IMG/VR virus record: IMGVR_UViG_3300045999_013174
Origin: a virus
DNA length: 64,000 bases
Direction: 5' to 3' (one strand)
Shown: one piece after another, positions 34,001 through 57,718 of the stretch
Position numbering within the stretch: the stretch's first letter is position 1
How the letters are laid out: the number at the start of each line of letters is the position of its first letter
Translations under genes and position numbers: made by a program
Notes under the pieces: model-generated
What the model saw: the letters and a program-made list of their open reading frames with translations, nothing else
The model's database searches: none
What the model was told of the DNA's origin: nothing

Positions 34001-35819
34001 GAATATGCTCGGGTCAGAGACCACTGGGCCTCTAATGTCTGCTGCGTTAATACAGGCGGACCCGAGTATTTTGGCTGAGCGAAGCTTGTGGTCTACGGCC
34101 GCGAAGGTTGCCGTAAGGGAGATTATTCACTCCCGCTCGATTCCTGAACACATTGCCGACAGGGCTTCGCGCCAGTCGATGTATGTGACATTGAAAAATA
34201 CGCCCGAAGGGTTTCTTGGGGTTATTGCCGCCGTTACGTCGATGGCCGTAAATACATTCGCTCCGATTCGATTCCTGGTTCCGTATGTTAATGTCCCGTT
34301 CAATATCGCCAATATGTTCCTCGATTGGTTCCCGCTAACCTCTGTGCCCCGCGCAGCCGGCTTGTCGCTATCGAGGATGTTTGGACCAACGTTCCTGCAG
34401 CGATTTGGTGTTAAGCCATCATCGTATTCTGAGGGAACGGCGGTTCAGTATGGACTGGAATACGACCCTGTTATGCATCAGGAGCAAAAGGTCAGGGCTA
34501 TGTATAGTACCCTTATTGGTATCTCGACATTTGCATACTACGTCTCGAAAGCACTTGGGGATGATGAGGAGGAGGAAGGCCCGGCAATAACCGGAGGTCT
34601 CTTCAATGTGAGATATGACCGCGCCGGGAAGACCCAAAAGCCTTACACCATAAAGATATTTGGCGAGGAGTTCTCTTATGAGAACACGCCTTTATACCTC
34701 GTCCTTGCCTCGGTAGGCAACACGTGCGACATAATCCGTCAGCTTAAGGCTGAGGGTGCTGAGCAAGGTGGTGTGAGTTTCGATGCTTTAATAAGCAACT
34801 CGTTGACCTCAATGACTTACACAGCGTTGTCCTTGTTTGATGCCTTGCCTATCAGTGGCCTCGAGGGGATAATGGGGATTCTCTCTTCAAGGGAGAAGGG
34901 GGCTGCGTCCATGGGACTTAAAGAAAAGGCTCTTTTGAGAACAGCCCAGGGACTTATAAAATCCCTGCTTACTCCGGTTCCTATTGTGGGCAACAACTTT
35001 GTGAAGCAGCTTGAGCAATTTAATGACCCACGCAAGTACGTTAATGATGTGTACGACCCTGAGGTGTTTCTTGCGAGAGCAACTGGTCACGTATTGATAA
35101 ACACCCTGTCAGACGGGTCTCTTGTTATGAGAGATTATCTTGGACGCGAAGTTGTTCAATATCCTGGCGCAAGGAATATCAAGACTCTTGAGATTGCTGA
35201 GAAGTCCGACATTGACCGCTACATCTACTCTAAGCATCTGAATTTTATTCCGGTATCAAAGGATTCCGAGGTTGCGGTTATTGCTAAGGGGCCAAATGGT
35301 CGGGAATCCGGGACCCTTGTGAAGCTGACTGATGATGTTCAGCTTTTTAACGAAGCTTACACCGCCGGTGGTACTATTATGCGAAAGTATCTTGGTGAGT
35401 TTCTCCCTCTGCTGAAGTCGCTTAACGACACTCAGCTTGAGAGAGAGATTATCAACCAGGCGAATGAATGGCAGCGAAAGTATGTTATTGAAAAAATAGA
35501 AGACGCCGAGTTTTCCAAAACGAAAGAAGGCTTTAAGGCCTCTTCGATTCCTGACGATATTTCTGTTGTGTTCTCCGGCTGGGGGCGCAACCGCGAATAT
35601 GCCGATGGGGTTACCCGGATTTCCGAAAATGGAAGTATCCTAAATATCCTTCGGGATATTAATAAATCACCGGTTTCCGCAAGGGAATCTAAGCTCAGGG
35701 ATTTGCGCGCTGTTCTCAATGTTAAGACCGAAAGCGAGAGGGTTAGGGATAAGATTCGGGAAGAGGCAGAACGTCGAAACTTAAATGTCAATAATTTGGA
35801 CATCGTAGTTCCTGAATAA
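22026..35819 (+). CDS. giant multidomain virion protein (4,597 aa), putative ejected polyvalent protein
   Basis: Single stop-free 13.8-kb frame. Coiled-coil N-terminal quarter. Pro/Ala linkers, including (PA)n at 26395-26487. A small domain repeated three times. HExxH...E zincin motif at 30060. Gly-loop/VDAG kinase-like segment 30920-31450. Multiple hydrophobic helices 33240-34900. Confidence 0.8.
   Translation: [4597 protein letters not shown]
26395..26487 (+). repeat. coding (Pro-Ala)n low-complexity tract inside the giant gene
   Basis: Translates to [31 protein letters not shown], a linker. A second P/A-rich linker lies at about 30590-30683. Confidence 0.7.
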
Positions 35820-42345: not shown

Positions 42346-42729
42346 ATGAGCGTAGCAAAAAAGACTAACCCTAAGCTTTGGGAAGCGGCTAAGTCTAAAG
42401 CAAAGGCCCGGATGGGAGGGAAGCACTCTGCCAGGGCGATGCAGCTGGCGGTGTCTATTTATAAAAAAGAGGGGGGCGGATTTGAAGGAAAGAAATCTTC
42501 ATCCAATAAGTTATCCAAGTGGACAAAGCAAAAGTGGCGGACGAAGAGCGGGAAGCCTTCAGGTGAAACCGGAGAGCGGTATCTCCCTGAGAAGGCTATC
42601 AAAAACCTGACGAGCGAAGAGTATGCGCAAACAACAGCGGCCAAAAGAAAGGGCTCAAAAAAAGGGCAGCAGTTTGTAAAGCAGCCAAAAAAAATTGCTG
42701 AAAAAACAAGGCGATACCGCAGTTCATAA
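42346..42729 (+). CDS. small lysine-rich protein
   Basis: 127 aa. N-terminal PKLWEAAKSKAKA..SARAMQLAVSIYKKEGGGF resembles a widespread uncharacterised small-protein family (recalled, not searched). Very basic C-terminus. Confidence 0.45.
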   Translation: MSVAKKTNPKLWEAAKSKAKARMGGKHSARAMQLAVSIYKKEGGGFEGKKSSSNKLSKWTKQKWRTKSGKPSGETGERYLPEKAIKNLTSEEYAQTTAAKRKGSKKGQQFVKQPKKIAEKTRRYRSS

Positions 42730-42767
42730 TAAACATCTTACCTTTCATAACCAAAACAAATCCAATC

Positions 42768-42998
42768 ATGCCAAACAATCCAAAACCTAAATTCCCTAAA
42801 ATCGACAAGAAGCTTGGGCCTCATTTCGGCGCCGGAGCCATCGGCACCTTTGCTGCCGCGTACGCTCCCGAAATCGGAGCTGCCGTTAAAAGAGGCGCCA
42901 AGAAGGCTAAAAAGGCTATCAAGAAGACTGTTTCAAACATTAAAAGCAAATCTGCCAACAGGCGGACGGCCGATGGTGTGGTGAAGCGCAAAAAGTAA
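42768..42998 (+). CDS. small lysine-rich protein
   Basis: 76-aa ORF, about 28% Lys/Arg. Confidence 0.4.
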   Translation: MPNNPKPKFPKIDKKLGPHFGAGAIGTFAAAYAPEIGAAVKRGAKKAKKAIKKTVSNIKSKSANRRTADGVVKRKK

Positions 42999-43017
42999 CC
43001 GGATACTCCGGCTGCAA

Positions 43018-43037
43018 TCAATCACAATCAATCACCT
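43018..43037 (+). repeat. tandem direct repeat 2 x AATCAATCAC
   Basis: GCAATCAATCACAATCAATCACC immediately upstream of the 43-aa lysine-rich ORF. Confidence 0.4.
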
Positions 43038-43050
43038 AATCTCAAAAACC

Positions 43051-43182
43051 ATGTACAACAACTCAGACAAAAAAACAATGCCCCTTGCCAAGAAGAAGAC
43101 ACGCAAGACAGGCAGCAAAAAACCTGTAGCGCAAAAAGGCAAAATGGCTAAAAAGGCCATGGCTATGCGCAAAATGAAGTAA
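43051..43182 (+). CDS. very small lysine-rich protein (43 aa)
   Basis: ATG-initiated 44-codon ORF below the ORF-track cutoff (MYNNSDKKTMPLAKKKTRKTGSKKPVAQKGKMAKKAMAMRKMK). Preceded by a tandem 10-mer repeat. Confidence 0.3.
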   Translation: MYNNSDKKTMPLAKKKTRKTGSKKPVAQKGKMAKKAMAMRKMK

Positions 43183-43202
43183 CCAGCAAACCAAGCAGAC
43201 CG

Positions 43203-43469
43203 ATGGCCCGCAACAAATTAGCAGGTAAAGGCACCGGCCGGTACAATGAAAGTACCGGCCGTGACTATTCGTATGACAAGAAGTATCAGGCGAAGAAAAA
43301 GCAAAAGAAGTATCGCGCAAAACTAAACAAGGCCAATCGAGACAGCGGCACCTATGGAAACGGAGACGGTATGGATAAAAGCCATACTAAGAGCGGAAGG
43401 CTCGTTAATGAGAAACAAAGGTGGAATAGGGCTCGTAATGGAGCAAACGGAAAATCAACTAAAAAATAA
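43203..43469 (+). CDS. small basic protein
   Basis: 88-aa ORF rich in K/R/N/G. Confidence 0.4.
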   Translation: MARNKLAGKGTGRYNESTGRDYSYDKKYQAKKKQKKYRAKLNKANRDSGTYGNGDGMDKSHTKSGRLVNEKQRWNRARNGANGKSTKK

Positions 43470-43474
43470 CCGTT

Positions 43475-43957
43475 ATGAAAACAGATGCGATTACTTTGTC
43501 AAGGATTGAGCTTATGCACCCGAAGGTTCGAGAAGAGGTTCGGCGCATGTATGAATCAATTTGCCAGGCTTTAACCGGTAGAGCTCTTTGCCGATTCACG
43601 CACACCTTAAGGACATTCGAGGAGCAGAATGCATTATTTGCACAAGGGAGAACAGCTCCCGGGAAGAGGGTCACTAACGCCCGGGGTGGAGCGTCGTTTC
43701 ACAACTATGGGCTCGCCTTTGATATTTGCCTTATTGTTGACGGGAAAACCGCCTCGTGGGACATGAAGAGCGATTTTGACCAAGATAGAAAGTCTGATTG
43801 GATGGAGGTTGTTGCTATCGCAAAGTCATTTGGGTGGGAATGGGGCGGAGATTGGAAGAAATTCCCGGATGCTCCGCATTTCCAAAAGACCTTTGGTTAT
43901 ACAACCAAAGAACTCATGGGGCTACGCAAGGCGAATGCGACATATCCTGATATTTAG
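43475..43957 (+). CDS. endolysin, peptidase M15 family (L-alanyl-D-glutamate peptidase type)
   Basis: SFHNYGLAFDI (H-x6-D) and DAPHFQ (D-x-H) zinc-ligand motifs typical of VanY/M15C phage endolysins. Confidence 0.8.
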   Translation: MKTDAITLSRIELMHPKVREEVRRMYESICQALTGRALCRFTHTLRTFEEQNALFAQGRTAPGKRVTNARGGASFHNYGLAFDICLIVDGKTASWDMKSDFDQDRKSDWMEVVAIAKSFGWEWGGDWKKFPDAPHFQKTFGYTTKELMGLRKANATYPDI

Positions 43958-44005
43958 CGCTCACTAAAGATGTCAAAATATAGTGCGTTTTAGGTATTAT
44001 CTCTT

Positions 44006-44599
44006 ATGTCGAGAGCGTACCTTTACTGGGCGATGATTCCAGCAAGCTTACTTTTAGAAAACTCTCTTAACTGGTTCTTTTTCAGGTCTGACGACGCTGG
44101 CAAGATTGTCTATTGTAATGAATTGTTTGAGTCTTACATTGACCATATTCAGCCAAACACGGTTGGAGACCTTGTAAAACTTGAAAAAGACAAGGATAAG
44201 GTGGAGTCTGCGATGGAAAAGGCGAAGGCTATTTCGCCCTTTCCTGTTCGTGTTCAATGCAGGATTTTACAAAACACAGGAGCTTACCGGTGGTCAACAT
44301 GGGAAATCTCTTATGGAGACAACCTGCATCACTGGATTGGCGTACAGTTATTTGACGTAGTTTCCATTGCCGCACACGAGCACGAAGAACAAGCTCGCCT
44401 CCTTGAAAAAATAGCCTGGCACCACAGCCACAAAATCAGGCGGCCCTTATCGAACATTCTTGGGGTTTTGGGGCTAATGGAAAAGTCGACAGGCCCGGCG
44501 GTTGAAGAGCTTGTCCCAATGCTTTCGACTGCTGCAAAAGAGCTTGATGAGGAAATAAAAAACATCGTGAATCTAACAGCAAGACCAAAAGATTCATAG
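44006..44599 (+). CDS. PAS-HisKA protein lacking an ATPase domain
   Basis: 197 aa. N-terminal PAS-like segment (..GAYRWSTWEIS..) followed by H-box AWHHSHKIRRPLSNILGVLGLM. The ORF ends before any HATPase_c N/G1/G2 boxes. Confidence 0.55.
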   Translation: MSRAYLYWAMIPASLLLENSLNWFFFRSDDAGKIVYCNELFESYIDHIQPNTVGDLVKLEKDKDKVESAMEKAKAISPFPVRVQCRILQNTGAYRWSTWEISYGDNLHHWIGVQLFDVVSIAAHEHEEQARLLEKIAWHHSHKIRRPLSNILGVLGLMEKSTGPAVEELVPMLSTAAKELDEEIKNIVNLTARPKDS

Positions 44600-44628
44600 A
44601 TTAGTGCTCACCCAAAAGGGTTATTGCA

Positions 44629-44868
44629 ATGCAAAAAAAATCAGACCTTTCAGCAGTATCGGCGACCGATTTGACAGATGAGCAGTACAACTCCAGGCTC
44701 ATCAGAGTTTTTATAGAAGGCGCTATTGAGGAACGTTATGACACCGAGCAAATTCCTGATATGCTAAGCTCTTTATGCAGATGCGCTGGCGATAACGCAG
44801 TCAAGGGTAAGAGAGAGCTGATTGCCCAGTTTTTTTATGAGAGTCGCATTGCGGGCCTCTCTGTTTAG
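44629..44868 (+). CDS. hypothetical protein
   Basis: 79-aa ORF. Confidence 0.3.
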   Translation: MQKKSDLSAVSATDLTDEQYNSRLIRVFIEGAIEERYDTEQIPDMLSSLCRCAGDNAVKGKRELIAQFFYESRIAGLSV

Positions 44869-44909
44869 AATGTCAATTTTTATATCTTTATCGCCCCAGG
44901 CCGATAAGG

Positions 44910-45356
44910 ATGTCGACAGACGAGTTAACGATATACATTATTGATAATTATGGGCATTGCGCAATAAAGCCGGATGGGTCTCCCAAAAAAGGCTTTATGC
45001 TCAATGTAAACTATCGCGATGTAATAGACGCTATAGATGCCATCTTGCCGTTCAAGGACGACGGCTCATACAAAAAATGCATTGAGGTTCAGCGCAAAAC
45101 CATCATGTCTGTGATACTAACTCGGCACGTATCGTCCAAACTGCTTCTGAAAAGGGTAGCCTATCTCCTTAATGTATCAAGCCATGCGCTTATTGTGCAT
45201 TACCGTAGGCAGCACGATAAAAAAATGCAAAGCATAAAACTGGAAGACCGGGATTATCAGCGTTCATTCGCTGTGGTTATTGACACCCTTTCATTTCAGA
45301 GCGACAAAAATAAACAACGAATTGACAATCTTTTATCGGGCAAAATTTCGCCTTGA
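44910..45356 (+). CDS. hypothetical protein
   Basis: 148-aa ORF followed by hairpin terminator 45391-45430. Confidence 0.4.
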   Translation: MSTDELTIYIIDNYGHCAIKPDGSPKKGFMLNVNYRDVIDAIDAILPFKDDGSYKKCIEVQRKTIMSVILTRHVSSKLLLKRVAYLLNVSSHALIVHYRRQHDKKMQSIKLEDRDYQRSFAVVIDTLSFQSDKNKQRIDNLLSGKISP

Positions 45357-45390
45357 CAATATCTTTGAGCCGTTCTGTTCTGTTATGTTG

Positions 45391-45430
45391 AAAGGGCGGC
45401 TCATCGAAAGGTGTCCGCCCTTCTCTTTTC
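45391..45430 (+). terminator. candidate intrinsic terminator
   Basis: AAGGGCGG-(16 nt)-CCGCCCTT stem followed by CTCTTTT. Confidence 0.5.
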
Positions 45431-45433
45431 ACC

Positions 45434-45745
45434 ATGCAACAATCCCTATTTGACCACGAACGGATTCAATCCTGTAATAAAGACGGAAGGAAGCCCACAG
45501 CTATTAATGTAAAATCCTTTTTTAAGGCCCCGGAATCTATTCGGCTTGGGGACCTATATGTAAGTTATACCGGTAGGGTGATGCTTGCAATGAAGTATGT
45601 TGTTGATGGCAAAAATGACCTTGGAATGCCGGTTGTTAAACTTCAAGTAAGAGAGGGTAGGGAGAATCCATTTGAATACAAGCTGGTGTCCGTTGACTCA
45701 TTCGCAAGAGCCGTAGAGTCTAAAAAGCTTGTTATGGTAGTGTAA
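45434..45745 (+). CDS. hypothetical protein
   Basis: 103-aa ORF. Confidence 0.4.
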   Translation: MQQSLFDHERIQSCNKDGRKPTAINVKSFFKAPESIRLGDLYVSYTGRVMLAMKYVVDGKNDLGMPVVKLQVREGRENPFEYKLVSVDSFARAVESKKLVMVV

Positions 45746-45799
45746 GGTCGGCGCGGTTATGAATAGAAACAATCGCTCTTATTGTGCGTAATAAAGGTC

Positions 45800-46570
45800 A
45801 TGAAGACCTTTATCTTTATTTTGATTATGTGTGTAGGCGGGAGCCTCATTGCTCAGTGCAACATCCGAACCGCACCGACATTCCTCGCTCTGCCGTCCTT
45901 TTTCGGGTTATTCCTGAATGGTCATTGCGTATCGCAGAATATGGCCGACACAACTATCTGCGTGAAGTTTCCACCCACCGCAACGGGAAGGGTGGCGGCA
46001 TTCTCAGTAAGTTCCCCGAACGGCTCTCCGGCATTTATCACCTCATACGCTCAGTACAACGAGCAATGCGTATTCATATCCAACTCCCCGCTTATTTGGC
46101 CGTCATCCGACACCACTACCGTGTGCTACACCATTCAAACAGCACTCATTGACAACTTCTGCCCGTACGCCCTACAAGTGTCCGGCCTTGCCGTTGAGTG
46201 GTGTGGAGTTTCTGCTACCATGCAAGGAGCCTATATAGACATCAGATTCTCCACCTGTTCCAACACAGGCACCGACAAGTTTATAATCCAAGCAAGCCAT
46301 GACCTAATCACATGGCAATCGTTCGGCAAAGTTTCGGCGCAATACCCTAACCACCCCGACAGGCTAAATTACCAAGTCACACTACCGCCCTGCATCGCGG
46401 GAAATCAGTACATCAGAATTGTTGAGTTGGACTTGAACGGTAATACGCAACCGTCCGAACCGGTGTTTGTTTCGGTGCCTTCTCCGGCGGTAACCACCAA
46501 AGGGTCATTTGATATCTTAGGGCGTGTCATTAGCGCCGATTCACCGTACCTTTACCGCGTTGGCAACTGA
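45800..46570 (+). CDS. secreted protein with N-terminal signal peptide
   Basis: ATG at 45800 gives MKTFIFILIMCVGGSLIAQC.. (classic Sec signal); the 45782 start in the ORF track is a TTG. Cys-rich beta-rich body. Confidence 0.45.
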   Translation: MKTFIFILIMCVGGSLIAQCNIRTAPTFLALPSFFGLFLNGHCVSQNMADTTICVKFPPTATGRVAAFSVSSPNGSPAFITSYAQYNEQCVFISNSPLIWPSSDTTTVCYTIQTALIDNFCPYALQVSGLAVEWCGVSATMQGAYIDIRFSTCSNTGTDKFIIQASHDLITWQSFGKVSAQYPNHPDRLNYQVTLPPCIAGNQYIRIVELDLNGNTQPSEPVFVSVPSPAVTTKGSFDILGRVISADSPYLYRVGN

Positions 46571-46572
46571 CT

Positions 46573-46830
46573 ATGACATCCGAAGAATTTAACAGCCTTA
46601 AACGCAAGCTGGAACTTATATTCCACTACCTCGGGCGTACCGTTGGCCTGCTCATTTTGGTTAGCGCCTATTGGGCTTCCCGCGCAGGTGTCATCAATAC
46701 CGCATCGGGGCTTTTATGGGTGTTCGTGGCGGCGGCAATAGGACTGTTCGGGAATAAGGTTAACTTTGAGTTCTTAAAACACATCCTTCCAATATCCAAG
46801 AAAGGAGGTAACGATGAACACAGCAGCTAA
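46573..46830 (+). CDS. small membrane protein (holin-like, speculative)
   Basis: 85 aa with two predicted TM helices and a charged C-terminus. Confidence 0.35.
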   Translation: MTSEEFNSLKRKLELIFHYLGRTVGLLILVSAYWASRAGVINTASGLLWVFVAAAIGLFGNKVNFEFLKHILPISKKGGNDEHSS

Positions 46831-47155
46831 TGATACTTTGCCTTATGTGGTTGTCAATGGTGATACCATCTACCTCGATGGCACTTTTGCACCGGCATAC
46901 ATTCGCACCTTTGAAGAGCCTAAGCAACTTACCGCTTTCGACACCATTCAGCCATGCGACATAAAGCTGCTTGAGGTTGGTGATACCGCCCGCTCGGCTT
47001 CCTTCGTTGGCACCATTAAGCCCAACGTGTGCGCCGGATATTCGCCAAGCCCTGATGATATCTCCATCACCTGCACCGATTCTATAATGTGGGCGTTTAC
47101 CACCTACGCCCTGCTAAAGCTATGCTTCAAAGTTGCGTTTTGGCCGAGGGCGTGA
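46814..47155 (+). CDS. hypothetical protein
   Basis: 113-aa ORF, last gene of the plus-strand block. Confidence 0.35.
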   Translation: MNTAANDTLPYVVVNGDTIYLDGTFAPAYIRTFEEPKQLTAFDTIQPCDIKLLEVGDTARSASFVGTIKPNVCAGYSPSPDDISITCTDSIMWAFTTYALLKLCFKVAFWPRA

Positions 47156-47183
47156 GGGTTATTCATCCAATAATCGACTACTA

Positions 47184-47245
47184 AAACCAAGGCTATTCAT
47201 TATTGTTTTCTTGGTTTCTTTAGGCAAATCTGCCTCTAAAAAAAT
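47184..47245. terminator. candidate bidirectional terminator region at the convergent strand switch
   Basis: Two hairpins, AAACCAAG...CTTGGTTT and AGGCA-aatc-TGCCT, flanked by T- and A-runs between the converging gene blocks. May overlap a 57-codon minus-strand ORF. Confidence 0.3.
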
Positions 47246-47455
47246 GGTAAGCTTATTTTCAACAAGCCATTTAGCCAAATGCTTATAGGCTAAATAGTTT
47301 TTTAAGGCAGGTAGTTTATCCTTTGCGGTCATATTTCTGTTTTAATCCTTACTGAGACCCGCCAGCGCGGTAAGCGGTGTTTATCAACCATTCGGAAATC
47401 CCGAACAGTTGGGGTGCAATTTTGTGAAGCGAATAAAGTGGCGCAAACACGGTAG

Positions 47456-47737
47456 TTAGGCGAGATTGCCAACAGCATCCTCAACCAATTTACGGATTTT
47501 CTTTTTGACTGATTTTTTAAGTTTCCTATACTCATCTTGGTAGTTATCAGCACACCAAACTTCATTAACATATTTTACAGCTTCATTTTTAAAAACCGTA
47601 GCATACCATCGCATTTTAAAGCCATTTGCAGTTACCATTACCATATATGTAGTTTGGCTTGAAGAGAAAGCAACCTCGCCTAACAGCACATTTGCAATAG
47701 GCGGGGTTTCGTGGTTTAATGATGTTTCGTGTTCCAT
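47456..47737 (-). CDS. small protein, MEHE-family paralog 1
   Basis: 93 aa starting ATGGAACACGAAAC (MEHET). N-terminal 30 aa paralogous to the gene at 48645-48848. Start codon bracketed by inverted repeat arms. Confidence 0.5.
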   Translation of the reverse strand: MEHETSLNHETPPIANVLLGEVAFSSSQTTYMVMVTANGFKMRWYATVFKNEAVKYVNEVWCADNYQDEYRKLKKSVKKKIRKLVEDAVGNLA

Positions 47738-47806
47738 ATAAAATTTTATTTTAAGTTGAATAATTCGTTTTCAAAAGTCCCGCCCATCGCAAATCTGCAA
47801 AACGTT
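47676..47806. repeat. imperfect inverted repeat (arms about 47676-47712 and 47771-47806) bracketing the start codon at 47737
   Basis: + strand ..CTAACAGCACATTTGCAATAGGCGGGGTTTCG.. versus the reverse complement of ..AAAAGTCCCGCCCATCGCAAATCTGCAAAACGTTAGTGGC..; arms share TAAC..ATTTGC.AT.GGCGGG..TT. Confidence 0.5.
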
Positions 47807-48107
47807 AGTGGCTATTGTAGGGACGCAGCCATCCCATACGAAAACCGTGTAACATTTTTTGTGTTGTTTCTTGTTCGTTATTATCTTCCAAGTAAGTGTA
47901 ATTCTGTTTTATCCATTGACCGCTTACCAAGTCAAGAACCTCATACAAATCTTTATGCTGTAACTTGCTTACAAAAGCGATAGCATCTGTATGTGAATGT
48001 TTGTAATGCTGTTCAAATTCGGGAGAACAACAGCCGCTAACACACGTTTGGCGCAAGCGGGGCTGACGTGCAAACATCAACTTTAGTTTTTCAATTAATC
48101 TTTTCAT
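47805..48107 (-). CDS. hypothetical Cys-containing small protein
   Basis: 100-aa ORF. Start bracketed by inverted-repeat arms 48030-48068 and 48127-48170. TAAATTTG box upstream. Confidence 0.45.
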   Translation of the reverse strand: MKRLIEKLKLMFARQPRLRQTCVSGCCSPEFEQHYKHSHTDAIAFVSKLQHKDLYEVLDLVSGQWIKQNYTYLEDNNEQETTQKMLHGFRMGWLRPYNSH

Positions 48108-48170
48108 GTTATATCAAATTTAGTTTTTCAAAATCCCCGCCTGTCGCCAAGCGTGGGAGCGTTAGCAGCA
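48030..48170. repeat. imperfect inverted repeat (arms about 48030-48068 and 48127-48170) bracketing the start codon at 48107
   Basis: + strand GCCGCTAACACACGTTTGGCGCAAGCGGGGCTG versus the reverse complement of CCCCGCCTGTCGCCAAGCGTGGGAGCGTTAGCAGC. Same motif family as 47676-47806. Confidence 0.5.
48116..48123 (-). promoter_or_regulatory. -7 box TAAATTTG (minus strand) upstream of gene 47805-48107
   Basis: Minus strand reads CTAAATTTGATATAAC-ATG. Confidence 0.3.
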
Positions 48171-48173
48171 ATT

Positions 48174-48530
48174 TTAAGGCTGACGTTCATCAATATACTT
48201 TTTGCTCGACATGACACCAAATGTAAATATGTTACGAAGAGCTTTGCTAATCAAAAATCCTTCTACAATTTTCAAATCTTCACTTTCTTTAGGTATGTAA
48301 CTTTCTCTAAATATGACCTTTCCATCAACACCTACTTCAACAAACCAAGCCATTTTTCTTTCTGTTGGAATTGATTTAGTTGTGCCTATGTGCATCATTG
48401 GTAAATAATAATCAGAAGGTTTTAACCCGCTAAAAAATTCAACGGTTCTTCTTTGGTTTGTTTCTTTTCGCTCATTCAATTCCCTTTCAAGATTTGAGCA
48501 AAGGTCTTGTAAAATACGTTTCTGTTCCAT
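48174..48530 (-). CDS. hypothetical protein
   Basis: 118-aa ORF starting ATGGAACAGAAA (MEQK). Upstream intergenic region is a 100-nt imperfect palindrome. Confidence 0.45.
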   Translation of the reverse strand: MEQKRILQDLCSNLERELNERKETNQRRTVEFFSGLKPSDYYLPMMHIGTTKSIPTERKMAWFVEVGVDGKVIFRESYIPKESEDLKIVEGFLISKALRNIFTFGVMSSKKYIDERQP

Positions 48531-48540
48531 AAATAAAACT

Positions 48541-48641
48541 GCTGCTAACAGCGTGTTTATGCAAGCGGGCGGACAGCTTGCTGTTAATAATTAAGTTCGT
48601 GCTATGCCCGCCTGACATAAACACGCAAAACGTTATGTGCC
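48541..48641. repeat. 100-nt imperfect palindrome of the same family (arms 48541-48580 and 48601-48641)
   Basis: CTGCTGCTAACAGCGTGTTTATGCAAGCGGGCGGACAGC / GCTATGCCCGCCTGACATAAACACGCAAAACGTTATGTGCC. Shared core CATAAACACGC and GCGGGC. Confidence 0.5.
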
Positions 48642-48644
48642 ATT

Positions 48645-48848
48645 TTAAGACACCTTTGCAATCTCATACACTTCATCAATAAAATGATAATGTGTTGCAA
48701 ATTCTACCATTGCATCATTTAAGCTACTTGCTTCTATATATACCATCAAATCTTTACCCATACTTCGGTATTGGAATAAAAAACGGCACATAACAGCCGT
48801 TTGCTGCAATGGCGGGTTCTGTGGTGTATTTATGCTTTCGTGTTCCAT
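48645..48848 (-). CDS. small protein, MEHE-family paralog 2
   Basis: ORF track gives 48645..49037. Internal ATG at 48848 (ATGGAACACGAAAG, MEHES..) matches paralog 1 at nucleotide and protein level. A perfect palindromic terminator lies between 48848 and 48910. Confidence 0.45.
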   Translation of the reverse strand: MEHESINTPQNPPLQQTAVMCRFLFQYRSMGKDLMVYIEASSLNDAMVEFATHYHFIDEVYEIAKVS

Positions 48849-48874
48849 TGGAATTTTATTTGAGTTTTCCTGAG

Positions 48875-48900
48875 AAAAGGCTCCCCTAAGGGAGCCTTTT
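48875..48900. terminator. perfect palindromic bidirectional terminator-like hairpin
   Basis: AAAAGGCTCCC-CTAA-GGGAGCCTTTT, flanked by A- and T-runs, between two minus-strand paralog genes. Confidence 0.6.
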
Positions 48901-48909
48901 GGCTGTTTT

Positions 48910-49173
48910 CTAAAAAAGATTCCCGTTGTTCCATTTCGCCTCCGTTTTATCCGGGTCTCTGATGTACTCAAAAAGCCGGTCCAAAAGTTCGTCTTTGGTG
49001 CTGAATGCAAAAGCTTGGCATCCCACTCGGACGACAAATCCTCTGCTCAATTCCTCGATGCGCATGTCCTTGATTTTGTTTGCTGATAGGGCTCGGTCAG
49101 CTACATTTACTGGGGTCGGCTCTCGTAAAGTCTCCAAGAGCGTTCCCCCACGCCCGTCCTGTTCATGTTCCAT
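48910..49173 (-). CDS. small protein, MEHE-family paralog 3 (divergent)
   Basis: ORF track gives 48910..49206. Internal ATG at 49173 gives MEHEQDGRGG...; shares the conserved start ATGGAACA(T/C)GAA. Confidence 0.4.
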   Translation of the reverse strand: MEHEQDGRGGTLLETLREPTPVNVADRALSANKIKDMRIEELSRGFVVRVGCQAFAFSTKDELLDRLFEYIRDPDKTEAKWNNGNLF

Positions 49174-49216
49174 TATGTTAGATTTGGGTTTTACAAAGCC
49201 GCCCAAGGCTATGAAG

Positions 49217-49441
49217 TTACTGTTCGCTAAAAAGACTCAATTGGGTATACCTCCTTCTCTTTCTGCACCTGCAGTCGCGCAGCGTTACGGTATTATCAGC
49301 TATTACTTCAATCTTGTCTCCTCTTCGGAAATATCGACGCAGCCGGCGAAGCCAAGATTCGTCAGTATAACAAAGCGGCTCAGCGCATGCGGCAAAGATT
49401 GCTCCGCAGCATTTTCGTTTAACGACTTGAATCATACGCAC
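49217..49441 (-). CDS. hypothetical Cys/Arg-rich small protein
   Basis: 74-aa ORF. Confidence 0.3.
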   Translation of the reverse strand: MRMIQVVKRKCCGAIFAACAEPLCYTDESWLRRLRRYFRRGDKIEVIADNTVTLRDCRCRKRRRYTQLSLFSEQ

Positions 49442-49448
49442 TATGGTT

Positions 49449-49799
49449 TTAATGAGGCCCTATTGGGTCTCCGTTTGGGTTACAGCGAAGTAGTCCAGGT
49501 ATGATATCGGGGCGAAAAAACAACTCCCTACCACAATTGCTGCATTTGTACTCGTAAAGCGTTTGTATTATCTGCCTGTCCGGAAGCTTCGTTTGGTGTC
49601 TGTTTACAAACGACTTACTATGAACAAGCTCGTTACCGCAGTCGCAAAAAACCATTGTATGCCATTTCCCGTCCACGTCAATGACCTTCCCTTTGTGGTA
49701 TCTGCGAATATCCATCCATTCTCCGTCAACATTTACAAAGGTTTTGCTGGGCCAAAGGCTTCTGAACCATTTGTGTTTTGCAAGATTTATCATAGTCAT
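49449..49799 (-). CDS. zinc-ribbon protein
   Basis: 116 aa with CDCG..(24 aa)..CSNCG, the spacing of a Cys4 zinc ribbon. Confidence 0.4.
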   Translation of the reverse strand: MTMINLAKHKWFRSLWPSKTFVNVDGEWMDIRRYHKGKVIDVDGKWHTMVFCDCGNELVHSKSFVNRHQTKLPDRQIIQTLYEYKCSNCGRELFFRPDIIPGLLRCNPNGDPIGPH

Positions 49800-50206
49800 C
49801 AGGGGTTTTCCACAGACGGAGTGGAGGTTATAAGACCTGGGTTGTAAAGAGCATTGTGAAGCATCCCTTTTATCCTTAAAGGGTCTGCTAAAGCAGAAAA
49901 TATATGCTCAACCTTTACCGAGCCTTTTCTTGTATCTGTAACGGCAAGGATAACATACTCGCTTGACCCTAAAATTGAGTTAAGCGCATCTATCTTATCA
50001 AGCGGAAATGGAAACATAAGCTCAACCTCGTTTGAGAGAAACCCAATGTCGCCCGAGTGGCCATAAGGCCTTACGAAAACAAAGTCTCCATCGGAAATCG
50101 TCACAACTCCGAGGTCATTTTTCTTTAGCTTTCGCCCACTGGAGAGCTTGTGCCCCTTGTAGCTTCCGGTAATCTTTACAATGTCGAATGGCTTGTATGC
50201 GCTCAT
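49799..50206 (-). CDS. hypothetical protein
   Basis: 135-aa ORF; start overlaps the stop of the upstream gene. Confidence 0.4.
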   Translation of the reverse strand: MSAYKPFDIVKITGSYKGHKLSSGRKLKKNDLGVVTISDGDFVFVRPYGHSGDIGFLSNEVELMFPFPLDKIDALNSILGSSEYVILAVTDTRKGSVKVEHIFSALADPLRIKGMLHNALYNPGLITSTPSVENP

Positions 50207-51003
50207 TAGTTCAAAATTATTGGGGTTCGACCATCGGTGATAATCACTTTGTTGTTGGTTGTTTTTATGGCCTCAATCCACTGCTGCTGAAGAATTTCTT
50301 TGGTTAATCCCGAAGACTCCACCCTGTTTCTCTCAGCGTCAATACGAGCCTTCTCGAGCAGCATCTTCGATGTGGCAAGCTGGTTCTCCACGGTTGCAGC
50401 TTCCTGGATGGCGTTGTTCTTTTTCTCAATCGCCTGAAGCATAGAAGTCGAGGGTTTAATACCCGAGGTAAGGTCGCCCATGTCAAAGTGTTTTACATTG
50501 AATTCGGTCTTAAGCCTTAGTTCAACGGCTGACTCCAGTGACCTGATGTTATACAGAAGACTGTCGTTTGTGAATCGACTCGCCTCTTCTCGGTAGGCAT
50601 TCAGCACAAGCCGGTTAAGGATGCCCTTTTCGATATTGTCCATAAAGGCTTCGCCTGTTCCAAACTGCTTGTATGAGAAAACGATATCGACACCCTTGCC
50701 GCGCATCGCGCTGTATGTGTATGTGGGGTCTACCGTGAACCGGCCACCGTCTTTGGTAACAATCTCCATCGCCTCAGGGTCTGCAGATTGCTCAAACATC
50801 GGAACTTGATAAAGTTCAGACCCGGGGCCAAGTATACCTTGACTTCCGGTTACCAAGGAGAAGTCGCCCTTGCCATTTCTTCCGTATTTCTTCATCAGGA
50901 CACCCTCATAATTCGGGGCCACTGAGTTGCAGGATGTGCATGATTGTAAAATCATTAGGCCATACACGGCAATTGCGGTCAATAAGAATTTAGTTGCTTT
51001 CAT
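50206..51003 (-). CDS. SPFH/Band-7 (prohibitin/stomatin-like) domain lipoprotein
   Basis: Signal peptide plus Cys (MKATKFLLTAIAVYGLMILQSC) typical of lipoproteins. Central domain and the C-terminal ..QQQWIEAIKTTNNKVIITDGRTPIIL resemble SPFH family proteins (HflC/prohibitin-type ending). Confidence 0.55.
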   Translation of the reverse strand: MKATKFLLTAIAVYGLMILQSCTSCNSVAPNYEGVLMKKYGRNGKGDFSLVTGSQGILGPGSELYQVPMFEQSADPEAMEIVTKDGGRFTVDPTYTYSAMRGKGVDIVFSYKQFGTGEAFMDNIEKGILNRLVLNAYREEASRFTNDSLLYNIRSLESAVELRLKTEFNVKHFDMGDLTSGIKPSTSMLQAIEKKNNAIQEAATVENQLATSKMLLEKARIDAERNRVESSGLTKEILQQQWIEAIKTTNNKVIITDGRTPIILN

Positions 51004-51214
51004 TTTGGTTTTTTGTTTTTGTTTGGGTTTTGGATTTTGATGTTTCGCTGAAAAAAATCTGCTTGTAAGGAAGGGCTATCAGGGAGACGGTCAAGACTAC
51101 AAGTATCGCCCATGCCAACAATGGGTACGGAGACTGAAATACCTCTATAATACCCATGCAGATTACAAAAAGTGCTGCAAGCATGAGCACTGCGGTTATT
51201 GCTTTCTTTTTCAT
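50990..51214 (-). CDS. small integral membrane protein (possible NfeD-like partner of the SPFH protein)
   Basis: 74 aa with two hydrophobic helices. Overlaps the SPFH gene start by 14 nt (operon). Confidence 0.4.
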   Translation of the reverse strand: MKKKAITAVLMLAALFVICMGIIEVFQSPYPLLAWAILVVLTVSLIALPYKQIFFSETSKSKTQTKTKNQNESN

Positions 51215-51215
51215 T

Positions 51216-51518
51216 TTAGTCGTGGTTCATTAAGAAAATGTTCTTGTTCTTCTTGCGCTCCTCGAGCACCTTTTGAAGCTTCTTTTTGTTGGGGTCTAAG
51301 GATTTGTACCCAATAACCGAAAGAGCATCCTCTATACGGGTGAGAATTTTTACTCCAAAATTCTTCCTCCCGCTCATGAATTTGCTCATGTCAGCCTTGT
51401 GTACATTAGCCCTTCGGCGCAACTCAGAAGTCGAAAGAAGGGTATTTTGGGAGAGGTATAACCTCAGCCTTGCGTTCCATTCATCAAGGCGCTTTCGTTG
51501 CGTGTTGTTCATTCTCAT
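51216..51518 (-). CDS. helix-turn-helix (XRE-like) transcriptional regulator
   Basis: LSTSELRRRANVHKADMSKFMSGRKNFGVKILTRIEDAL fits HTH_XRE architecture. Confidence 0.55.
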   Translation of the reverse strand: MRMNNTQRKRLDEWNARLRLYLSQNTLLSTSELRRRANVHKADMSKFMSGRKNFGVKILTRIEDALSVIGYKSLDPNKKKLQKVLEERKKNKNIFLMNHD

Positions 51519-52255
51519 GGCATTGCAGAATTGGCTATAAACCCTGCTCCAAAAAGGGCTGCAGCGCCCAGTATTTTAACACCTAATGGGACTTTCTTTT
51601 TCCCTCTTACGGTGTATTCCCGGAAGCTTATCGCTTCGTAATATGGGCTCTCTATAGAAACCCTTACAACGGGGCTTTGCCTCTTAAAAGACAGCGGTTT
51701 TCTTGGTGTAACATCATCAATCTGCACTTGCCCTGTGCTCAAATTTAGGGTGTCAATTAGTATTCCTGGGCCAATTGGCGACTTCACAATTGAGCCTCTA
51801 AGGTCAAACCACAGGCTGTCCTTATAAGCGAATCGTGCCGGCGTAGGAATACATGCTGTATCGGTTGAAGCAAGGCCTCCTGTGTCTATGGGAATAAACA
51901 CGCTGTCTACCGAAGCTTTAAGGCTCATCATGACAGAACGTTCAAGGTTTTTGTATCGCCTCGCCTCAGCTCCTAACCTTTGCTTAAAGTCTTCCGAAGC
52001 GGATTTCTCAGACACAATCAGCCTCTCAAGCTCATACACCTTGCGCCCCGAAGCCTCGACTTTAACAAAGGCGTCGGCGGCCGACACCTCCGCTGATATA
52101 GCCCTTTGCTCAGCCTCTTCTAATGAGGCTTCAAGAGACCGATTTGCGATGCCACCGAGCCACTCGGAATAAATAAACCCTAAAAGGACGCCAATGGCAA
52201 TTCCGGCGGCAATTAAGGCAGCTCGCTCCATGGACTTAAAAGTCTGACTGGTCAT
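51515..52255 (-). CDS. membrane-anchored coiled-coil protein
   Basis: 246 aa. N-terminal TM helix (AALIAAGIAIGVLLGFIY) followed by a charged helical region. Confidence 0.4.
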   Translation of the reverse strand: MTSQTFKSMERAALIAAGIAIGVLLGFIYSEWLGGIANRSLEASLEEAEQRAISAEVSAADAFVKVEASGRKVYELERLIVSEKSASEDFKQRLGAEARRYKNLERSVMMSLKASVDSVFIPIDTGGLASTDTACIPTPARFAYKDSLWFDLRGSIVKSPIGPGILIDTLNLSTGQVQIDDVTPRKPLSFKRQSPVVRVSIESPYYEAISFREYTVRGKKKVPLGVKILGAAALFGAGFIANSAMP

Positions 52256-53210
52256 AATAAAGCCCTATTGTTGGTTGCCCAAGTTCAAGAACACCTTCAT
52301 AGAGTCGGCGCTTTTTGGGATTACTGCCGTATTCGCTAAAGAACAGTGACACGCGAGACTTGATATTCAAGTCCATAACCTTGTCTGTTTGCTCTGTCAG
52401 TAAAAACGAAGGCTCGGTCCGCCACTCTTTAGGAGACCAATTGAACAGCTTAACAGGGAATTCATCGCAAAGCTCCGGGTAGTGCTCACGGAACAGCATT
52501 TCCGCCATCTTTAGCTGCAATTCATTGTCTCTGTAAAACCCATGGCGGCCGCTCTTAAAGTCGACAAGACCGATTACCCGAACATCATTATAGGACTCCT
52601 TCATGGAGCCTTTCTGCGGGCCAGTCTTGTAGACCTCGCCCCAATACCCTTTGACCCTTAAGGTCATCTTGCAGGGCATATCAAGCGTTCCGGCAAATCC
52701 AAGGTTCGCGCTGGCTAATGGCAACTCTAGAGCCAAGGGCTCAACTTGGTATTCATTAAAGAACGCACAGAAGGACAGCAGGTCGGAATAAGTATCCTGC
52801 TCAAACTTAAAGAAGACCTTATGGTTAAACCCTCGGTTGTTCATTCCGATGTCGTCCACAACCTCCCTCTCAAATGGAATCTTTACAGATTTATTCCTGA
52901 TGAAATACCCGATGATAATGTGGAGGTTGGTTCCGTAGTCTGCCCGTTCCTCAAGGTACGCTCCCCACGCCTCTTTCCCCATCTGAATCATCTTGTCGAT
53001 TATAAAAGGGGAAAGCGGGGAGGTGTTCCTTATTATGGTGGTGATTGATGGGAGGACGATTGGCTCTGACTCTTCATCGCTATCTTTGCTCCTTACCATA
53101 TAATGCCTTCCGGATTCCGCAGAGACGCGGGATATGTAATAGGGAGGCGTTTTGATTACTGCTTCGTCAATATAGTCCGGCAGTAAGAGTTCAAGTTGTT
53201 GTTCTGTCAT
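52236..53210 (-). CDS. putative PD-(D/E)xK nuclease (exonuclease-like)
   Basis: 324 aa with ..GFAGTLD.. and ..VIGLVDFKSG.. resembling motifs II/III of PD-(D/E)xK nucleases (YqaJ/lambda-Exo-like). Adjacent to SSB and NinB-like genes. Confidence 0.35.
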   Translation of the reverse strand: MTEQQLELLLPDYIDEAVIKTPPYYISRVSAESGRHYMVRSKDSDEESEPIVLPSITTIIRNTSPLSPFIIDKMIQMGKEAWGAYLEERADYGTNLHIIIGYFIRNKSVKIPFEREVVDDIGMNNRGFNHKVFFKFEQDTYSDLLSFCAFFNEYQVEPLALELPLASANLGFAGTLDMPCKMTLRVKGYWGEVYKTGPQKGSMKESYNDVRVIGLVDFKSGRHGFYRDNELQLKMAEMLFREHYPELCDEFPVKLFNWSPKEWRTEPSFLLTEQTDKVMDLNIKSRVSLFFSEYGSNPKKRRLYEGVLELGQPTIGLYYDQSDF

Positions 53211-53255
53211 GTTAAAAGGGGGTTAAAGCCCCTCCCGTGAGGAAGGGGCTGTTTG

Positions 53256-54005
53256 TTAAAATGGAAGGTCATCGTCCTCTCCGCCCATAAGAGGCGGCGG
53301 TTCTGTTGCTTGGGCTGCGCTCGCCTGGGCGCGAGCCCTCTCAATGGCTCCTACTTTGAAGGACTCATTTTCGCTTGGCGGCTGCTGCGCAGGAGGCTGA
53401 GAGGGCTGCTCTTCATTGGGAGCCTCTGAGGCGGGAGCCGGCGAAGGCGAGCCTGTAGAGCCGAATTTCGCAGTAAGGTTGTCGATTACCGTATGGAAAA
53501 AATCCACAACGGCAGAGTCGTCAACAACCTTCTTCTTGCCTACCATCCCGATTTCGGGGCGGGGGATTTCGTTTACTGGGATAGCCCAGTCAACCCTGTT
53601 GCCCTCAGACTCCACATAAGCTGAGGCATAAAACTTACCATCATTCTTTGATTGGCGCGAATAAACGCGAATACGTACAGGTTTGCTTTTATCAAGCGAA
53701 AGCAAGCTGTTCAAAATAGAATACGTCAAGGAGTTGTAGGTCGCCTCCACTTGGAATTTTTTGGTTGGCTCTTGGTCATCTACGAATTTAACCCTTACGG
53801 AGTAAATTGGATTCCCTTGCCATTCCCCCTCCTTGCGGGAAACACCGATAACATACCCGGAAACTTGGTCGAAGCGACCATCTGTTCCCCATTTACCATC
53901 TGCACCCTTGACAGCTAATGTGAAAAAAGGCGAGTTCGATTCATCAGTCTTAGCATTAAGCTTAAGATAATCAATCTGTTCAGAATTTGAATTTGAATAA
54001 CCCAT
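53256..54005 (-). CDS. ssb: single-stranded DNA-binding protein
   Basis: 249 aa. Pro/Gln/Ala-rich flexible tail ending with the canonical SSB acidic tip DDDLPF. Confidence 0.7.
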   Translation of the reverse strand: MGYSNSNSEQIDYLKLNAKTDESNSPFFTLAVKGADGKWGTDGRFDQVSGYVIGVSRKEGEWQGNPIYSVRVKFVDDQEPTKKFQVEATYNSLTYSILNSLLSLDKSKPVRIRVYSRQSKNDGKFYASAYVESEGNRVDWAIPVNEIPRPEIGMVGKKKVVDDSAVVDFFHTVIDNLTAKFGSTGSPSPAPASEAPNEEQPSQPPAQQPPSENESFKVGAIERARAQASAAQATEPPPLMGGEDDDLPF

Positions 54006-54025
54006 TGGTTTAAGATTAGAGTTGC

Positions 54026-54033
54026 AAAGTTAG
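54026..54033 (-). promoter_or_regulatory. -7 box TAACTTTG (minus strand) upstream of ssb
   Basis: Minus strand reads CTAACTTTGCAACTCTAATCTTAAACCA-ATG. Confidence 0.3.
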
Positions 54034-54061
54034 ACAAAAACCCACTAACGTAGGTCGTTAA

Positions 54062-54544
54062 TTATAAACAATCCGAACTTGGCTCGGGTATTATCCAGTC
54101 CATATTAAGTTCATAATACTGACGGATAGCCTCGAGCCTTTCTCCGAATTCTTTGGTGTTGTAGAGCGTCGTTGAGGTTGGGATATTAATCGTCTCTCCG
54201 GTCGCTCCATTGAAGATTGTCACACAGAAAAAATTCGCCTTATTGAACTCATGCATCTGCTGCTTTGATAGTTGTAGCCCGTGCCTTTCCTTGTGCGCTT
54301 TAATCTGCTCTGCGACAACAACGCCATAGTAATAGGCGTTTTGAGCAAGGGAGCGCTTATCGCTATCAAAAACGCTAAGTTCCATCACCAATGTAGAGCC
54401 TTTGAATTGCGATACGAATTCATTAAAAGCCTTTCTGTTGATGATTTTAGCAACCCCCGTGTCGCTATCGACACGGAGGAAGAATCTGTTCTGAAAGCTT
54501 GACAGCTCCTTAATCGACCTCATTGGCATCAGGCTTAAGCTCAA
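54062..54544 (-). CDS. NinB/Orf-like recombination mediator
   Basis: 160 aa. SDKRSLAQNAYYYGVV resembles the lambda Orf (NinB) core ERNRSLDQNRKLWACLGDV, from memory of the family. Confidence 0.45.
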   Translation of the reverse strand: MSLSLMPMRSIKELSSFQNRFFLRVDSDTGVAKIINRKAFNEFVSQFKGSTLVMELSVFDSDKRSLAQNAYYYGVVVAEQIKAHKERHGLQLSKQQMHEFNKANFFCVTIFNGATGETINIPTSTTLYNTKEFGERLEAIRQYYELNMDWIIPEPSSDCL

Positions 54545-55310: not shown

Positions 55311-55411
55311 AAGTCAAAGGGTTAAAAGGAAAAGTGAAAAAAGGATTGAAAAAAACATTATCAGAAAGGCTGCCAGCCAATAAAGTATAAAGGCCAGCAG
55401 CCAGCGTGTGC

Positions 55412-55672
55412 TTAAACCGGCATCTTGTTCCATTGCCGTAGCGCTTTAGTTATCGCCCATGTTAACTCTGAGGCGTCAAGGTCGTCTCCCTTTATGGGGA
55501 GCTCTATCATTCGAGAGCCTTTTGTATCCTGCAATTGAATACTAATGGAATCCTTAGAATTCCATTTCTCCCTGGACTCTATGTGGATAGCAAATACAGG
55601 GCAGGTGTCTTTCTCGGGATGGCTTGGGTATGGCGGTGCACTTGCTCCGCCCTGACTTAAAAGCTTTACCAT
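55412..55672 (-). CDS. hypothetical protein
   Basis: 86-aa ORF. Confidence 0.35.
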   Translation of the reverse strand: MVKLLSQGGASAPPYPSHPEKDTCPVFAIHIESREKWNSKDSISIQLQDTKGSRMIELPIKGDDLDASELTWAITKALRQWNKMPV

Positions 55673-55674
55673 GA

Positions 55675-56010: not shown

Positions 56011-56020
56011 GTGTGATTAT

Positions 56021-56641: not shown

Positions 56642-56664
56642 TTTTGCTCATTTTAAGGGTTTGT

Positions 56665-56746
56665 GGTCAGGACAGGACTCGAACCTGCATCAGAGGTGGC
56701 AGAGTTTACTACATCACCTTGCTTTATCCAATTACGCCACCTGACC
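56665..56746 (-). tRNA. tRNA-like gene with aberrant anticodon arm (identity undetermined)
   Basis: Minus-strand sequence GGTCAGG..AGGTG[16 nt]CACCT..GCAGGTTCGAGTCCTGT CCTGACC A. Perfect 7-bp acceptor stem, canonical GGTTCGAGTCC T-arm and a 5-bp anticodon stem, but a 16-nt anticodon loop instead of 7. Confidence 0.45.
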
Positions 56747-57717: not shown

Positions 57718-57718
57718 A

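Follow-up and report, generated by a model that had tools for sequence, protein, structure and literature searches.

Among the described proteins that correspond to part of a histidine kinase, Spo0B and ChpT are dimeric phosphotransferases that derive from kinases, and PhyT both passes phosphate from receiver to receiver and sequesters a regulator (PMC5898713). Spo0B (Bacillus), ChpT (Caulobacter), and PhyT (Sphingomonas) have in common a hairpin of the dimerisation and phospho-acceptor (DHp) type, which carries a histidine and is placed between two receiver domains. Spo0B and ChpT keep a degenerate domain resembling the catalytic ATPase (CA) domain. A catalytically inert DHp protein can also modulate another system via the dimerisation interface: RetS and GacS are known to heterodimerise by way of the canonical DHp interface (PMC8498467), and the CA-less pseudokinase ChrS heterodimerises with its paralogue HrrS and alters signalling (PMC9491836). 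Kinases that lack HisKA or HATPase are recognised as an 'incomplete' class (bioRxiv 10.64898/2026.02.27.708494), and Rap proteins encoded by phages target the Spo0F relay (PMC8027211). Here, we analyse a gene at positions 44006..44599 (+ strand) of a stretch of 64,000 nucleotides (the window) of the virus record IMGVR_UViG_3300045999_013174. The gene encodes a short protein with a predicted PAS sensor domain and a DHp hairpin, and the chain ends without an ATPase domain.

The phage protein appears to be a minimised copy, reduced to the first PAS and the terminal DHp domain, of a Bacteroidota-specific PASn–DHp family. It resembles the cellular members in its C-terminal module, in the stop about 55 residues past the histidine, in the type of the N-terminal PAS domain, and in non-canonical residues one and four positions after the histidine (H+1 and H+4). 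It differs from them in having a single PAS domain and about 188 amino acids (aa) as compared to 314–1320 aa, and in having no receiver, kinase, or signalling gene nearby; the function of the cellular proteins is itself deduced from operons only. By analogy, the phage protein probably works like the Spo0B/ChpT/PhyT class without being a member of it. What supports the likeness is operon order, histidine kinase → receiver → DHp → receiver in the cellular relatives. In contrast to Spo0B and ChpT, the phage protein is devoid of any CA remnant and carries a PAS input, and its sequence kinship to them is HisKA-clan similarity only. RetS and ChrS, in turn, are host proteins; RetS still has CA and receiver domains and ChrS_CA-fs arose from a frameshift made in the laboratory, whereas the phage layout is ancient, conserved, and virus-encoded. 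The closest functional precedent from phages appears to be the action of Rap–Phr on Spo0F. Rap–Phr of Bacillus phages (phi3T and others) resembles the present case as an accessory phage gene predicted to act on a host His-Asp-His-Asp relay, but it has the unrelated tetratricopeptide repeat fold of Rap phosphatases or anti-activators, belongs to Firmicutes hosts, is regulated by a peptide, and does not mimic a relay component.

Results

Domain anatomy of the phage protein

From the first ATG to the stop codon TAG (44597–44599), the PAS–DHp gene encodes 197 aa. The start is ambiguous, as the equivalent of Met10 (44033, MIPAS) is the start in 19 of 20 homologues, which gives 188 aa. Moreover, a public-metagenome protein identical to the phage protein (P0001), on a contig of 70.9 kb, is called at 188 aa. 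Met10 may be, and probably is, the true start. The PAS-fold sensor domain (44072..44347, +; residues 23–114) was delimited by the AlphaFold2 (AF2) model, Foldseek, and alignment columns. It is followed by a HisKA-type DHp hairpin of two helices, residues 123–160 and 164–191 (44372..44578, +), for which Pfam, profile matches to the PDB, AF2, and hhalign agree. The H-box WHHSHKIRRPLSNIL (44417..44461, +; residues 138–152), placed by the sequence itself, an alignment to GacS, and logos, contains the candidate phospho-acceptor His142 (44429–44431) with lysine at H+1 and arginine at H+4. The stop follows 55 residues past His142, and the chain ends after helix 2.

For the window protein alone, Pfam scores are weak. 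HisKA (PF00512) matches at E = 5.1e-4 and 20.5 bits, compared to a gathering score of 26.9 bits, and a PAS profile match is absent from the Pfam scan; relatives and structure are consequently needed as support. All 21 members of the phage family match HisKA at E ≤ 0.1 (best 2.5e-7), and PF00512 is precomputed for 10 of them. The family profile finds solved DHp domains, namely GacS (7n0e_A, 1.3e-5), 7z8n (7e-5), and RetS (0.02). The sequence signal for the PAS part is weak also in the family, with PAS_3 in 2/21 members (0.012) and PAS in 1/21 (0.078).

The AF2 model built on the family alignment has a mean predicted local distance difference test (pLDDT) score of 80.9, with the PAS block at about 87–95. 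Strands at residues 23–28, 33–37, 81–88, 94–104, and 107–114, interspersed with helices, form the five-stranded antiparallel sheet with flanking helices of a PAS fold, as also seen by Foldseek. The following antiparallel hairpin carries the histidine on helix 1, arginine at H+3, and proline at H+5, as in a DHp domain. In the Foldseek search against the PDB, the LOV–histidine-kinase chains 8a52 and 4gcz rank first (E ~1e-6), and their alignment of about 215 columns spans both parts. Isolated PAS domains (HIF2a/ARNT, LOV, Leptospira) follow at a target TM of about 0.7 and E of about 4e-5. Thus, the assignment as PAS plus DHp is confirmed at the level of the predicted fold, and the original prediction, which had read a PAS-like N-terminus and an H-box from the window and had called for a HisKA profile search, was right on both domains.

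A LOV photosensor was considered, since LOV kinases lead the fold matches, and rejected. QCRILQ (residues 84–89), the sole C-R-x-L-Q of the protein, lies in strand 81–88 after helix 60–76, a G-beta position typical of PAS_3, whereas LOV needs the flavin-binding motif GXNCRFLQ with its adduct-forming cysteine on helix E-alpha. Placed within a β-strand and off the LOV flavin site, QCRILQ indicates that the PAS domain is not LOV. Identity of the phage protein to its LOV matches in Foldseek is 16–20%. The PAS motif N..F….SHI.P is found almost family-wide, with HIQP at residues 47–50 (44144–44155) and its conserved histidine between strands. Located in the helical region, this histidine (His47) could bind a cofactor or ligand.

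Absence of an ATPase domain and of a receiver

In canonical sensor histidine kinases, the DHp domain is followed by a CA domain in the same or in a split gene, and neither arrangement was found here. Pfam detects no HATPase_c in the four open reading frames (ORFs) downstream of the PAS–DHp gene, and neither HATPase_c nor Response_reg among the 29 − strand and 37 + strand ORFs of the window. This includes a 4597-aa ORF, which has zero Pfam matches and so no signal of either kind. Hidden Markov models (HMMs) of receiver and CA domains were built locally from Bacteroidota control loci, where they return 120 receiver and 57 CA matches. In all six frames of the window and of 98 related phage loci (1.13 Mb), the same models return 0 matches at E ≤ 10. 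The PAS–DHp protein has no ATPase domain and thus cannot autophosphorylate.

The gene is conserved and under selection. In the sister phage clade described below, the ratio of non-synonymous to synonymous substitution rates (dN/dS) has a median of 0.074 (quartiles 0.061–0.092; 350 pairs from 43 distinct coding sequences). Together with the conserved stop and with CA-like sequence in no frame of the 1.13 Mb, this value led us to reject a pseudogenised, frameshifted, or split kinase. The phage PAS–DHp gene is a working, selected gene and not the remnant of a broken kinase. The claim that the protein ends before any HATPase_c is borne out by the position of the stop, and no downstream or frameshifted ATPase domain, which would have pointed to an ordinary or pseudogenised kinase, was found in the window.

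A Bacteroidota family with the same layout

A profile search over 1.84 billion representatives returned 5827 matches, 429 of them at E ≤ 1e-10. After the phage-type proteins of about 190 aa come hundreds of multi-PAS, GAF, phytochrome, or LOV proteins of 300–1320 aa, in which the DHp match runs to the C-terminus. Almost all of the 150 best representatives have 50–75 residues between the histidine and the end of the chain. When the phage family and the cellular C-terminal module are compared directly by hhalign, they align over 70 columns with 99.8% probability, E = 1.5e-28, and 43% identity. Pfam recognises HisKA in 21/21 of the cellular terminal modules (best 7.2e-10). The family motif [AS]-W-x-Q-S-H-x-[VI]-R-x-P-[LV] … ELD..I..IV is followed by the end of the chain about 50–75 residues past the histidine, and the phage protein fits this description.

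Counting one genome per species, more than 568 sites were confirmed, almost all of them in Bacteroidota, including Algoriphagus, Gillisia, Mucilaginibacter, Pedobacter, Pontibacter, Chitinophagaceae, Marivirga, and Cyclobacterium. In assembled genomes, the stop follows 52–69 residues past the histidine in 82/84 cases, which identifies the truncated layout as a genuine architecture rather than an assembly artefact. In two proteins, P0076 and P0106, the module is internal, and the chain also contains a receiver at the N-terminus and, separately, a canonical HisKA plus HATPase_c. In current annotation, the cellular proteins go by 'PAS domain-containing protein' or, wrongly, by 'histidine kinase'.

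Proteins of 314–325 aa encoded by bacteria of the Chitinophagales type (MCZ2222727.1) are the closest cellular relatives; some of their contigs exceed 1 Mb. The closest cellular DHp domain reads AWHQSHKVRKPLSNILGL (P0049-type Chitinophagales) versus AWHHSHKIRRPLSNILGV in the phage, and the N-terminal PAS domain of these relatives is homologous to the phage PAS domain. With the N-terminal PAS and the terminal DHp domain in common, the phage protein looks like the host protein minus its middle PAS domain. Judged from these comparisons, the ATPase-less PAS–DHp layout is native to Bacteroidota and not an invention of the phage.

H-box chemistry

In HisKA proteins, an acidic residue at H+1 is needed for the kinase reaction and threonine or asparagine at H+4 for phosphatase activity (Willett & Kirby 2012, PMC3510030). 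The phage protein, whose HKIRRPL aligns to HEIRTPL of GacS, has neither. Across the phage clade, H+1 is lysine (86%) or leucine (13%) and H+4 is lysine (68%) or arginine (31%), so that H+4 is basic in 22/22 sequences. In the cellular family, H+1 is glutamate in only 34%, H+4 is arginine, alanine, lysine, or glycine, and the H-boxes listed for the top cellular representatives contain one threonine and zero asparagines at H+4. The non-acidic H+1 and the lysine or arginine at H+4 argue against the chemistry of a kinase acceptor as well as that of a canonical phosphatase. In all likelihood, the phage protein is no kinase, and no HisKA phosphatase of the canonical kind either.

Other positions are strongly maintained. 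The histidine, the arginine at H+3, the proline at H+5, and the helix-1 face PL(A/S)NILG are common to the phage and cellular families and nearly invariant. In complexes of kinases with response regulators, the helix-1 face next to the histidine contacts the receiver. The conservation of histidine, arginine, proline, and this face suggests a retained role in docking or phosphotransfer, which would need neither H+1 nor H+4.

Gene neighbours of the cellular relatives

Gene neighbourhoods were read from 80 loci (L014–L093) retrieved with the pattern QSHxVRAPLA, which represent one 'VRAPLA' sub-branch of the family. The neighbouring gene encodes a Response_reg domain downstream in 44/78 and upstream in 36/65 cases, and HATPase_c in 5 and 6 cases, respectively. 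At least one adjacent stand-alone receiver gene on the same strand is present in 56/80 loci, often with overlapping stop and start codons, and a CA-bearing kinase lies within 4 kb in 42/80. A recurrent same-strand operon consists of a CA-containing histidine kinase (~670–900 aa), a receiver (~150 aa), the PAS–DHp protein, with or without a receiver of its own, and a further receiver (~140 aa). Examples are L014 (2791–4640), L017, L032, L046, and L053, while L069 and L033 hold two to three such genes within 8 kb. The order kinase → receiver → PAS–DHp → receiver corresponds to the layout of a His-Asp-His-Asp relay, with the CA-less DHp domain at the position of the second histidine.

The sub-branch closest to the phage is found in another context, in which serS and a gene for a PAS-PAS-DHp protein are followed by genes for a 114-aa protein, a peptidyl-prolyl isomerase, and gcvH. 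The 114-aa gene (L179 and L181, 6987–7331; L183, 7001–7345; L184, 7032–7376) always follows the serS-linked PAS-PAS-DHp gene. Its product has no Pfam record, no relative in the PDB at E < 0.1, and no phage homologue, and it is not a receiver. It could be a partner of the PAS-PAS-DHp protein or a mere syntenic neighbour.

Phage relatives carrying the gene

A search for relatives covering 5.8 billion proteins yielded 21 clusters at 47–100% identity to the phage protein, all of 174–199 aa. In their alignment, 35 columns distributed over both halves are invariant, including S141, H142, R145, and P147. Pattern scans of IMG/VR found the exact H-box type on four contigs only, all of this lineage; a further candidate locus, L098, was rejected as a chance antisense match. 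A sister phage clade encodes proteins of about 189 aa with the H-box SHELRQPL and a stop 57–58 residues past the histidine. It is present in at least 337 IMG/VR viral stretches, many of them on contigs of 32–38 kb. In L107, the one sister-clade contig examined in detail, the micro-synteny is the same, with tail fibre, endolysin, and then small ORFs ahead of PAS–DHp and replication genes after it. Among cultured phages (50,697 records), neither blastn with 43000–47000 nor tblastn with the PAS–DHp protein, the portal, and a 638-aa ORF gave a match. A Foldseek search of BFVD returned complete kinases of jumbo and giant viruses and, from uncultured Caudovirales, short proteins of 165–205 aa that bear the names 'PAS domain' or 'histidine kinase'. 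Short viral PAS- or kinase-like genes are thus already deposited under automatic names.

Phage genome and neighbourhood

The window encodes a portal (phrog_6547), a tail fibre, and crAss-type muzzle and ring proteins (PF25731, 1.2e-31; PF24228). It comes from an uncultured and deeply divergent lineage of crAss-like phages with a genome of about 71 kb. Directly upstream of the PAS–DHp gene lies a VanY-type M15 endolysin (43475..43957, +; Peptidase_M15_4, 1.4e-17; phrog_2649, 2.2e-33), in agreement with the position next to lysis genes noted originally, and the endolysin also adjoins the PAS–DHp gene in L005–L009. Downstream, an accessory block of six + strand ORFs, none of them CA or receiver, extends over 44629..47155 up to a strand switch at ~47.16 kb. 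Homologues on phage-like contigs of 40–78 kb occupy the equivalent site, past the structural genes and endolysin and ahead of the strand switch. A scan for promoters and terminators around the gene gave counts equal to the shuffled expectation, with models that do not cover Bacteroidota promoters.

Within the block, a 262-aa protein (45782–46570, +) with an N-terminal segment resembling a signal peptide or lipoprotein is conserved in most of the contigs examined from this lineage (L001–L004, L008–L011, and L013). It is encoded downstream of the PAS–DHp gene in the window and in L008 and upstream of it in L001–L004 and L010–L013. The variable gene order points to an accessory, 'moron-like' pattern rather than to a component of a cassette. 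An 85-aa ORF (46573–46830, +) with a strongly hydrophobic segment is a holin candidate and is conserved in L008/L009. Between tail fibre and endolysin (42346–43469, +), four small ORFs encode proteins of 127, 76, 43, and 88 aa with 28–37% lysine plus arginine; the basic 127-aa and 88-aa ORFs are conserved in L008/L009.

In the structural arm, the giant ORF of 4597 aa (22026–35819, +) has no Pfam match at E ≤ 0.01, and a simple regular expression found no DxDGD-type motif in it. The giant virion proteins of crAss-like phages include a packaged RNA polymerase. The − strand arm (47159–63865) encodes a small serine recombinase (Resolvase plus Recombinase), an SPFH/Band_7 protein, and a DUF1810 protein, as well as tRNA-Tyr(GTA) and tRNA-Arg(CCT), the tRNAs lying at 56663–56746 and 60109–60181.

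Discussion

We tentatively favour a reading in which the phage protein mimics its host counterpart and exchanges phosphoryl groups with the receivers of that counterpart, or sequesters them; it falls somewhat short of an even chance of being correct. The protein would be a cytoplasmic accessory factor composed of one PAS sensor and a DHp hairpin with a phosphorylatable histidine. In the infected cell, two hairpins would pair into the DHp four-helix bundle, the second coming from another copy of the phage protein or from the host homologue. The face around His142 would then dock the receiver domain or domains normally served by the host protein, and a phosphoryl group would be accepted and returned, as in the second-histidine (His2) step of Spo0B, ChpT, or PhyT, or the receiver would merely be sequestered. 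As a result, the host phosphorelay would be drained, rerouted, or blocked, possibly gated by a signal that the PAS domain senses. A more far-reaching version, in which two lineages of Bacteroidota phages, with hundreds of contigs, encode a PAS-gated, ATPase-less His2 mimic that is the first of its kind from viruses and rewires a host relay, and in which thousands of CA-less PASn–DHp proteins of Bacteroidota make up a so far unrecognised class of DHp-based phosphotransferases substituting for histidine phosphotransfer (HPt) domains, appears doubtful as a whole.

Several observations weigh against relay mimicry. The linkage to receivers is shown for the VRAPLA sub-branch only, which was selected by the search pattern, and the sub-branch nearest to the phage protein has neither a receiver nor a kinase next to the gene in any of its four contexts. 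Hence, the linkage to receivers and CA-bearing kinases that marks the VRAPLA sub-branch is seen neither at the phage gene nor in its closest cellular sub-branch. Further, the gene is located in the late or lysis arm, unlike the expected place of an early takeover factor, and PAS-specific patterns found a prophage copy in none of 185,579 species genomes. Finally, about 7 kb of the ~71 kb genome lies outside the scanned 64-kb window.

The original prediction had proposed a dominant-negative or phosphatase-like hijacker of host signalling. Interference with a host His-Asp system is still the best reading, whereas the idea of a generic dominant-negative kinase fragment gives way to specific mimicry, which fits a natively ATPase-less family better. 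In its dominant-negative form, the protein would act as a poison: its DHp domain would heterodimerise with a host kinase or PAS–DHp homologue and block trans-autophosphorylation, similar to RetS–GacS. Such a role would suit a DHp domain without CA whose best sequence matches among solved structures are the GacS DHp domain and RetS, and for which the RetS–GacS and ChrS–HrrS heterodimers provide precedents; the near-identical H-box and helix 1 of the P0049-type host protein would moreover favour mixed dimers. A poison does not require the phospho-acceptor histidine, yet histidine, arginine, and proline are invariant in both phage clades and in the cellular family. In addition, the closest host homologue is itself CA-less, so that the autophosphorylation to be poisoned is absent there. 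On balance, we regard the poison as unlikely.

Equally improbable, in our estimate, is a sensor internal to the phage, in which the PAS domain would read redox state, energy, or a metabolite, the hairpin would serve as a dimerisation or output coiled coil, for example in lysis timing, and no host receiver would be involved. The hairpin, however, is genuinely related to HisKA, and its invariant H-box recurs in cellular proteins from kinase/receiver operons. The setting of the gene is compatible with an internal role, as it lies between endolysin and a holin-like ORF and is found consistently within the block from endolysin to strand switch in two phage lineages, but gene order within this block is not fixed and the contigs examined yielded no candidate for a co-varying phage partner. 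The absence of a phage-encoded receiver, and a PAS motif suggestive of a specific ligand or cofactor, would also agree with such a sensor.

A dedicated phosphatase that strips a host response regulator, i.e. a bifunctional activity without the kinase, is very improbable. HisKA DHp domains do carry phosphatase activity, and a lone DHp domain could in principle dock a phosphorylated receiver, but the threonine or asparagine required at H+4 (PMC3510030) is replaced by lysine or arginine in every phage member, and the phosphatase-like part of the original proposal finds no support. An ordinary kinase that was pseudogenised, frameshifted, or split, with its ATPase half elsewhere, has as its only support the missing CA domain in the PAS–DHp ORF and is practically negligible, given a stop position that phage copies and bacterial genes, hundreds of each, have kept, the low dN/dS, and CA-like sequence in no frame of the window or of the 98 phage loci despite a working positive control.

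In the literature searched, outside of which lie most subscription journals, we found no description of the kinase–receiver–PAS–DHp–receiver operon, none of a Bacteroidota family of CA-less DHp proteins or its counterparts in phages, nothing relevant on phage HisKA-only proteins, and no functional study behind the names of the viral PAS- or kinase-like proteins in UniProt and BFVD. The family on the host side is a result that stands by itself, and the anatomy of the phage protein is solid; its mechanism is one that we infer. Should relay mimicry prove wrong, the gene would still be a conserved, strongly selected phage accessory gene in a lysis-proximal region. If it is true, phages of Bacteroidota, a phylum dominant in soils, freshwater, and guts, would manipulate two-component signalling by mimicking a relay component and not by means of an enzyme. 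This would constitute a new route of host takeover and would provide a compact, sensor-gated tool of 188 aa to probe or rewire phosphorelays. For the hosts, recognising the ATPase-less PAS–HisKA family would change the count of Bacteroidota signalling capacity.

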